Below, in pieces: positions 1 through 55,101 of a DNA stretch of 64,000 bases. Numbering within the stretch: position 1 is the stretch's first letter; every line of letters starts with the position of its first letter. Origin of the DNA: Escherichia phage vB_EcoM_Goslar. The notes under the pieces are model-generated. The model was not told the DNA's origin, searched no databases, and saw only the letters and a program-made list of their open reading frames with translations. Position numbers and translations under genes: made by a program. The stretch lies in sequence record NC_048170.1; one strand, given 5' to 3'.

Positions 1-30
1 CCTTCCCTGATGGGTTGGAGGAGGGTTATG
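1..30 (+). terminator. partial conserved stem-loop (plus-sense copy, truncated by the window edge) with UUAUG
   Basis: ccttccc-tgat-ggg-ttggaggaggg then ttatg; 5' arm lies outside the window. Confidence 0.4.
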
Positions 31-39
31 CCGTCAAGC

Positions 40-56
40 AAAAAAAAAAAAAAAAA
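40..56. repeat. A17 homopolymer tract
   Basis: 17 consecutive A residues, 10 nt after the UUAUG that follows the partial hairpin. Confidence 0.9.
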
Positions 57-101
57 TGATAGTCACAGGCTCTCCAATGAAGGAGAGCCGTGACCGTCAG
101 T

Positions 102-803
102 TTAGGATGCGGATAATCTCGTGTACTTCTGGCGAATATGATTCTTACGGCGAACTTCGTCATCCTCGTCACGCCATTCGAGATAAGCAACGAATCGACG
201 TAACTGCGCTGCAGTCATCGCTGACGAGCGATCTTCTACATCTAGAACAACGTAACGAACGTCACCAACGCCATCGCAATCGACGTAACTGAATACCAAA
301 AGGCCATCGCCGTATTCAACGATGGTAACTTCGAATCGTTTATCGAACAAATAAAACAGTTCCGATTCAATGATCATCGGAATGACGCACATATCAGGAC
401 GATTGAGGATTTCCATCATCACCCGTAACGCGCGAGGAGTATGGCGAGCGAACTGGTCGTTAAAACGTTGTTTCATCGCTTGTTCCACACCATCTGTTTT
501 TGTTCCAAACCACGGACGTACTACAGATTTCGGTGGTGTAAGACGAAAGCGATATGCTTGTATAAACAACAGAATATCAGCGACGTTGGGAAATTCTTCC
601 TGGTCTTCGTATATCTTGCGGATAATATCCGGAATCGTAACCATCAAGTATTTCTTATCGCCTCCTACTTTCTCGAGATTAGCAATATGCCCTTCTACCA
701 CCGGCAGGTAAACGAAATTATACCAATGACGGTATCTTTCGGTACGTTGGTAGTTTGGGATAAAATTAAGAATACTACTCACTGCGCGTTTTAATGGGTT
801 CAT
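102..803 (-). CDS. hypothetical protein
   Basis: 233-aa ORF, ATG start at 801-803, no recognisable motif; follows the partial hairpin and A17 tract at the window start. Confidence 0.5.
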   Translation of the reverse strand: MNPLKRAVSSILNFIPNYQRTERYRHWYNFVYLPVVEGHIANLEKVGGDKKYLMVTIPDIIRKIYEDQEEFPNVADILLFIQAYRFRLTPPKSVVRPWFGTKTDGVEQAMKQRFNDQFARHTPRALRVMMEILNRPDMCVIPMIIESELFYLFDKRFEVTIVEYGDGLLVFSYVDCDGVGDVRYVVLDVEDRSSAMTAAQLRRFVAYLEWRDEDDEVRRKNHIRQKYTRLSAS

Positions 804-4148: not shown

Positions 4149-4180
4149 CATCCTCCCAACCCGTAAGGGAAGGGAGGATG
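4149..4180 (-). terminator. conserved intergenic stem-loop terminator
   Basis: catcctccc-aa-ccc-gtaa-ggg-aa-gggaggatg between convergent genes; minus-sense followed by UGGUUUUUAUGC. Confidence 0.55.
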
Positions 4181-11185: not shown

Positions 11186-11220
11186 CCTCCTTCCCTAGCC
11201 GTCAAGGCCGGGGAAGGAGG
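11186..11220. terminator. conserved intergenic stem-loop (variant loop), between convergent genes
   Basis: cctccttccc-tagccgtcaaggccg-gggaaggagg; 10-bp outer stem, U-rich flanks on both strands. Confidence 0.5.
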
Positions 11221-36814: not shown

Positions 36815-36845
36815 ACGGATATAAAAAAAAATAACACATAGTTAA

Positions 36846-48081: not shown

Positions 48082-48106
48082 ACGCAAAAAAAAAGATTGT
48101 GCGGTT

Positions 48107-55028: not shown

Positions 55029-55079
55029 CGCAGATTCCTGTTTGAAAGATAAGATATCACATGATGGTCGACAGCATAA

Positions 55080-55101
55080 AGCCCACCCCGAAGGGCGGGC
55101 T
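55080..55101 (-). terminator. variant hairpin terminator with the same downstream UUAUG
   Basis: agccc-acccc-gaag-ggcgggct, minus-sense followed by UUUAUGCUG; directly after the stop of the 1125-aa gene. Confidence 0.5.

Follow-up and report, generated by a model that had tools for sequence, protein, structure and literature searches.

Genes and features at the start of the window

The stretch analysed here, referred to as the window, comprises 64,000 nucleotides of Escherichia phage vB_EcoM_Goslar (NC_048170.1). With a first gene whose product is 100% identical to Goslar_00001, it appears to be the opening 64 kb of that record. Its gene content includes a phiKZ-type major head protein, a DnaB-like helicase and virion proteins. 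The best identity of the head protein in the phage collection is only about 33%, and the protein of the first gene, gp001, has no match in that collection. The first 3 kb of the window gave no match in the phage, plasmid and complete E. coli genome collections, and there are no tRNAs in the 64 kb.

Positions 40 to 56 are exactly 17 consecutive A residues, with a C at 39 and a T at 57. This is the sole homopolymer longer than nine in the window; the next-longest runs are A9 at 36823-36831, A9 at 48086-48094 and one T7. From the base composition, 3e-6 runs of at least 17 A residues are expected per 64 kb window, and the run is therefore real and not a chance event. The original prediction placed it in an intergenic region, which the letters and the gene layout bear out, gp001 being the nearest and only real gene nearby. 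Two open reading frames across the tract (26..190 on the minus strand and 56..292 on the plus strand) were rejected as spurious; the tract lengths of relatives differ by non-multiples of three.

On the minus strand, gp001 is preceded by three co-directional genes (window 2528->102). Relatives show what lies on the other side, before the start of the window: a plus-strand DUF7194 gene of 208 aa that converges on gp001, with 110-137 nt from stop to stop. In the orientation of the window, the gap between the two genes consists of the DUF7194 stop codon, 6 nt, hairpin 1, TTATGCCGTCAAGC, A(n), hairpin 2, 2 nt and the gp001 stop codon. The features within the window are:

1..25, plus strand: 3' two-thirds of hairpin 1, truncated by the window start; member of a family of predicted terminator palindromes, oriented so as to terminate the converging DUF7194 gene.
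26..39, plus strand: TTATGCCGTCAAGC, 3' box of the predicted plus-strand terminator; its tail TTATGCCGT fits TTATKYYGT.
40..56, minus strand: A17 on the plus strand, T17 on the minus strand and U17 in RNA; putative U-tract of the gp001 intrinsic terminator, 9-26 in relatives.
57..99, minus strand: hairpin 2, stem-loop of the gp001 transcript; 17 pairs, dG -28.2 kcal/mol, z -7.3.
102..803, minus strand: gp001, 233 aa, no known family, 100% identical to Goslar_00001 (YP_009820686.1); its transcript would stop at the features above.

A partial hairpin (1-25) followed by UUAUG (26-30) had also been described in front of the run. Both are real; hairpin 1 looks partial because the window begins inside it, and the relatives give the full palindrome. 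An Rfam search with the window and with the full intergenic region of one relative returned no family, and a literature search on Goslar and homopolymers found nothing relevant.

Hairpin 2 and the T-run downstream of gp001

Hairpin 2 begins 2 nt past the gp001 stop codon, in sense orientation. Its RNA reads UGA.GGUCACGGCUCUCC / UUCAUU / GGAGAGCC.GUGACU.UCA and folds into a stem of 17 pairs with two single-nucleotide interruptions. When the minus-strand RNA was folded against shuffled sequences, none of 200 shuffles folded as well. The U17 starts at the nucleotide right after the last pair, and the UAUCA that seems to be a spacer between stem and run is paired in the fold. A simple terminator scan of the window did not flag this site, because the stem has bulges, and folding was used instead.

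The same fold is found in five relatives, with dG from -24 to -29 kcal/mol. In four of the five the U-tract directly abuts the stem, and in the fifth (L046) the first of ten U residues is part of the outer helix. Covariation was analysed in ten distinct sequences, a number at which the support is moderate, and 98.8% of the cells are paired compared with 38-49% in slid controls. Three of the 17 pairs are changed on both sides, including the closing pair beside the U-tract, which changes from U-A to C-G. There are also G-U pairs at columns 14-48, 20-41, 21-40 and 23-38, and these are legal only in the minus-strand RNA, as they would be C-A on the opposite strand. Selection therefore acts on the gp001-sense transcript.

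The site combines a stable GC-rich stem after a stop codon, a U-tract adjacent to the base of the stem, compensatory substitutions and a sense position past the gene end, in the 3' UTR, as in a canonical intrinsic (Rho-independent) terminator. It differs from the canonical form in the length of the U-run, which is 17 in Goslar and 9-26 in relatives versus the usual 7-9, and in the long stem of 17 pairs. We consider it likely that the A17 is the U-tract of a canonical intrinsic terminator of gp001, seen from the opposite strand. The gp001 T-run terminator is then a known kind of element in a known phage. The original prediction had noticed neither this role of the run nor the identity of the UUAUG, which is the TTAT box discussed below.

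We suggest that an RNA polymerase would read past the gp001 stop codon and then through the 17-bp GC-rich hairpin, and that the weak rU:dA hybrid across the T-run would release the transcript. Judging from the sequence and the fold, transcripts should end at the T-run, and the terminator would end the minus-strand transcript of gp001 and the three co-directional genes upstream (2528->102). The polymerase reading this terminator is probably one of the non-canonical, phage-encoded enzymes that nucleus-forming jumbo phages use for transcription, and such an enzyme may or may not respond to a plain hairpin with a U-tract. This counts against the assignment, as does the fact that most terminators in the window have a TTAT box and no long U-run. 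A U-tract of 7-9 is enough for a bacterial RNA polymerase, and the extra length is therefore not explained by function.

The predicted opposing terminator and its palindrome family

The full form of hairpin 1 in relatives is CCCTCCTCC-WW-CCC / loop / GGG-WW-GGAGGAGGG, of which the 5' arm (...CATATTCCCTCCT) is absent from the start of the window. In phiKZ, ONT-cappable-seq has revealed a conserved intrinsic terminator consisting of a CCYCC/GGRGG hairpin and TTAT, with the consensus BCCYCCCCHWWDGGGRRGGBYTTATKYYGT, as well as pairs of termination sites in opposite orientation where genes converge (Putzeys et al. 2024, PMC10914365). The motif recurs in 201phi2-1 (PMC11512511). Hairpin 1 resembles the motif of these two phages: it has the CCYCC.../...GGRGG arms followed by TTATGCCGT, it lies after a stop codon, and about 12 copies are present in the window. 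The TTATGCCGT at 26-34 is an exact fit to the phiKZ tail TTATKYYGT, and a pattern adapted to Goslar fits 12-34 without a mismatch. The stems in Goslar, at 14 bp and with a W-W internal loop of 2x2, are longer than in the phiKZ motif, and for this reason the literal 30-nt phiKZ consensus fails to align to hairpin 1 even when 3 mismatches are allowed; its sole match is 55071-55100 on the minus strand. We conclude that hairpin 1 with UUAUG is a predicted phiKZ-type terminator of the converging plus-strand gene.

The other copies in the window are near-identical palindromes of 30-35 nt with the form CCYTCYYCC-WW-CCC / 4-5 nt loop / GGG-WW-GGRRGRRGG, for example at 4149, 15778, 17604, 27746, 36846, 43310, 48107, 49776, 61009 and 63715. 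Most of them lie just past gene ends, followed by (T/C/A)TATG-YYGT, and CATA(W)...(W)TATG flanks the majority. In several, which lie between converging genes, there is a TTAT box at either end. This palindrome family is the Goslar counterpart of the conserved phiKZ terminator.

Two other roles for the UUAUG were considered. It was rejected as a start codon or promoter element, since it is the conserved tail and the stem extension (CATAA/TTATG) of the palindrome family. Translation from the UUAUG at 26-30 would give a small lysine-rich peptide (MPSSKKKKKN...) encoded across the A-run, and the GGAGGAGGG just upstream of the ATG speaks for this reading. However, this GGAGGAGGG is the 3' arm of the terminator hairpin, the TTATG is a conserved box after a dozen palindromes, and the run length differs by non-multiples of three, so no frame is kept. 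Such a peptide is almost certainly not made.

The box at 26-39, TTATGCCGTCAAGC (GCTTGACGGCATAA on the other strand), is nearly invariant, with occasional single-base changes, in relatives down to 57% identity of the adjacent protein. Where the adjacent protein of a relative has dropped to 57-68% identity, the non-coding box is still better conserved than the flanking gene. GCCGTCAAGGC is also found in the loop of the palindrome at 11186-11220.

The A17/T17 is no part of the phiKZ motif and belongs to the other, plain terminator. That the A-run could be part of the plus-strand terminator was rejected, as the other family members are T-rich, never A-rich, after the TTAT box. The gap would then hold two terminators, that of gp001 and a second, opposite one of the phiKZ type, made of hairpin 1 and the TTATGCCGT box. 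The A/T run would be the only unpaired stretch between these back-to-back terminators. As in phiKZ, a convergent gene pair carries two opposite termination signals, and the locus documents such an arrangement in an E. coli nucleus-forming phage, with one of the two terminators predicted to be of the phiKZ type. Its value is mostly practical. Goslar has become a model system, and the locus should help with the annotation of its transcription units.

Other convergent gaps in the window, such as those at 4149 and 27746, have a palindrome flanked by two TTAT boxes and lack a long run, which makes a long U-run optional in Goslar. The layout of the two A9 runs, at 36823 and 48086, is the same as that of the A17 and supports its reading as a U-tract: each lies in a gap between converging genes, is a T-run when read on the minus strand and comes after a hairpin there. 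Folding lengthens the stems toward these runs, reaching the run at 36823 and ending about 7 nt short of it at 48086. On the plus strand, A9 48086-48094 lies just past the stop codon of the helicase and A9 36823-36831 past that of a 969-aa virion protein, and both runs are 12-14 nt before terminator palindromes.

In five relatives (L004, L028, L029, L031 and L061) the 32-nt palindrome found at 4149-4180 of the window (CATCCTCCCAACCCGTAAGGGAAGGGAGGATG) is nested in the loop of hairpin 1. It occurs in either orientation and has a few base changes in L029. Evidently, terminator palindromes can be copied to new places.

Variation in tract length and assembly breaks

Tract length was compared in about 39 Goslar-like contigs that span the site, obtained by protein-guided look-ups and one metagenome scan; some of them may not be independent. 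They come from gut and sewage metagenomes and from isolate assemblies of E. coli, Shigella and Salmonella. About 23 of the 29 hits of the metagenome scan were unrelated chance matches. A scan of viral contigs with the exact pattern across the tract gave no match, and the relatives were found by the protein-guided scan.

The T-run is present in all of these contigs, and its longest uninterrupted length ranges from 9 to 26. The lengths by group are:

P0003 group (gp001 96% identical to the window), 11 contigs with identical protein and flanks: 12, 13, 13, 14, 15, 16, 16, 16, 17, 19 and 26.
P0011 group (gp001 90%): 11-14, mostly 12.
P0022 group (gp001 79%), interrupted form TTTA-Tn: 19-20.
Relatives with gp001 at 64-68%, interrupted form TTTC-Tn: 9-16.
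L046 (gp001 57%): 10.

The P0011 group averages about 12 and the P0003 group about 16. Runs of 6 nt in the same loci show no variation. Variability rises with run length, and the lengths are partly clade-specific. Among ten genomes whose helicase is identical, the run at 48086 ranges from A8 to A13; for the run at 36823 a single relative (L076) was compared, and it has A9.

The original prediction called the tract slippage-prone and possibly hypervariable. Both descriptions hold up well against the range among the contigs and against the spread of 12 to 26 between identical flanks. It had also proposed comparing tract length among relatives, and the lengths found are not uniform. As in other slippage-prone tracts, such as the contingency loci of Haemophilus and Neisseria and the poly-A/T tracts of organelles and phages, the length differs in near-identical genomes while short runs are stable. 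The pattern fits real slippage with some technical noise. We infer that slippage in vivo, rather than sequencing error, is behind most of the length differences, and part of the variation may come from sequencing or assembly error. Most simply, the length and its variation would result from replication slippage, with the run kept at or above about 9-10 T and no cost to extra length. Above a minimum run length, the variation looks neutral.

Alternatively, the length could be under selection. The tract would then act as a contingency dial that tunes read-through between the converging operons, with effects on antisense RNA and polymerase collisions, or the spacing or strength of a nearby promoter. 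The spread of lengths between identical flanks and the different clade means agree with this idea, as does a TTGACG hexamer past the T-run on the minus strand. However, there is no plausible -10 element 16-18 nt past this hexamer, and a second terminator, hairpin 1, lies immediately downstream, so that read-through would be blocked anyway in either direction. All observed lengths are at least the 7-9 U residues sufficient for a bacterial RNA polymerase, which makes a change in efficiency unlikely. The A9 at 48086 varies likewise, suggesting a generic mutational property. The length polymorphism among close relatives is of the kind seen at contingency loci. Unlike those of Haemophilus and Neisseria, however, the Goslar run is neither coding nor between promoter hexamers: it lies beyond both stop codons, with no promoter hexamer pair spanning it, so it offers no on/off switch. 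A selected dial is, in our judgement, unlikely. We give a similarly small chance to the idea that Goslar-like phages keep very long, fast-mutating U-tracts where genes converge because their RNA polymerases, in contrast to that of the host, need about ten or more U residues at a plain hairpin without a TTAT box. In that case the tract would be a rapidly adjustable heritable dial instead of a neutral by-product of slippage, and its length would control how much read-through, and hence antisense RNA, arises from converging genes in the phage nucleus.

The nature of the site accounts for the fact that the Goslar reference opens here and that many Goslar-like assemblies open or break at the same spot. 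Within the gap of about 130 nt, at least 11 further contigs come to an end: three in the T-run (L026, L027 and L030), six in or at the edge of hairpin 1 (L029, a 244-kb scaffold, L032, L033, L034, L045 and L046) and two in hairpin 2 (L003 and L049). Hairpin 1 also contains the first base of the window, which is the base at which L033 ends. In several NCBI contigs of about 236-238 kb, the gp001 gene carries the locus tag ..._000001. The assembly uncertainty that had been suspected from the length of the A-run is thus supported, as is the variability; the original prediction holds but was incomplete.

Such a concentration of ends could also point to a feature of the DNA itself, such as a physical end of the genome, a pac site, an origin of replication, an unwinding element or an A-tract bound by a protein. 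The start of the Goslar record, the first genes of the 236-238 kb contigs and the contigs that end in the gap would all agree with it. However, BAL-31 mapping has shown Goslar DNA to be circularly permuted (PMC6563267), and base 1 of the record is therefore arbitrary. The contig ends do not share one position and are spread across the T-run and the two palindromes, as they should be if assemblers break at homopolymers and at inverted repeats with flipped loops, and other assemblies read straight across the gap. Converging genes would be an unusual layout for an origin, and the covariation of hairpin 2 is of the RNA type, tolerating G-U. A DNA-level feature is therefore very unlikely.

In both hairpins, sequences that are otherwise identical can carry the loop in either of two mirror-image orientations (L002, L005-L014, L020, L025, L032 and L049). 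The loop of hairpin 2 (window 62-96) is TTCATT or AATGAA, and the tip of hairpin 1 (window 1-25) is CCAACCC-GTAA-GGGAAGG or CCTTCCC-TTAC-GGGTTGG. These flips are as expected for recurrent small inversions at palindromes, which template switching predicts, and they are likely a further cause of contig breaks, via de Bruijn graphs.

The run could finally be mainly a sequencing or assembly artefact, with a true tract that is short or absent. Long homopolymers are error-prone on Illumina and PacBio RSII, both named in the Goslar paper, and three contigs stop within the run. Against this, at least nine T residues stand at the same place in about 39 contigs (not necessarily all independent) from differing samples, assemblers and databases, and diverged lineages carry interrupted forms, TTTA-Tn and TTTC-Tn, that are inherited within clades. 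An artefact of this kind is highly improbable. The exact number is another matter. The Goslar paper gives PacBio RSII or MiSeq sequencing with SPAdes assembly, and neither method fixes a 17-mer run to the base; 17 is therefore approximate, and the value in the Goslar record may be off by one or more. The count should not be trusted to the base nor used as a variant.

Several of the Goslar-like contigs come from NCBI draft assemblies labelled E. coli, Shigella flexneri and Salmonella enterica (including L016, L018, L036, L041 and L042). Several of the contigs in draft assemblies are near-complete at 203-241 kb, and others are shorter fragments. This suggests that Goslar-like phages are carried along with, or contaminate, clinical isolates.
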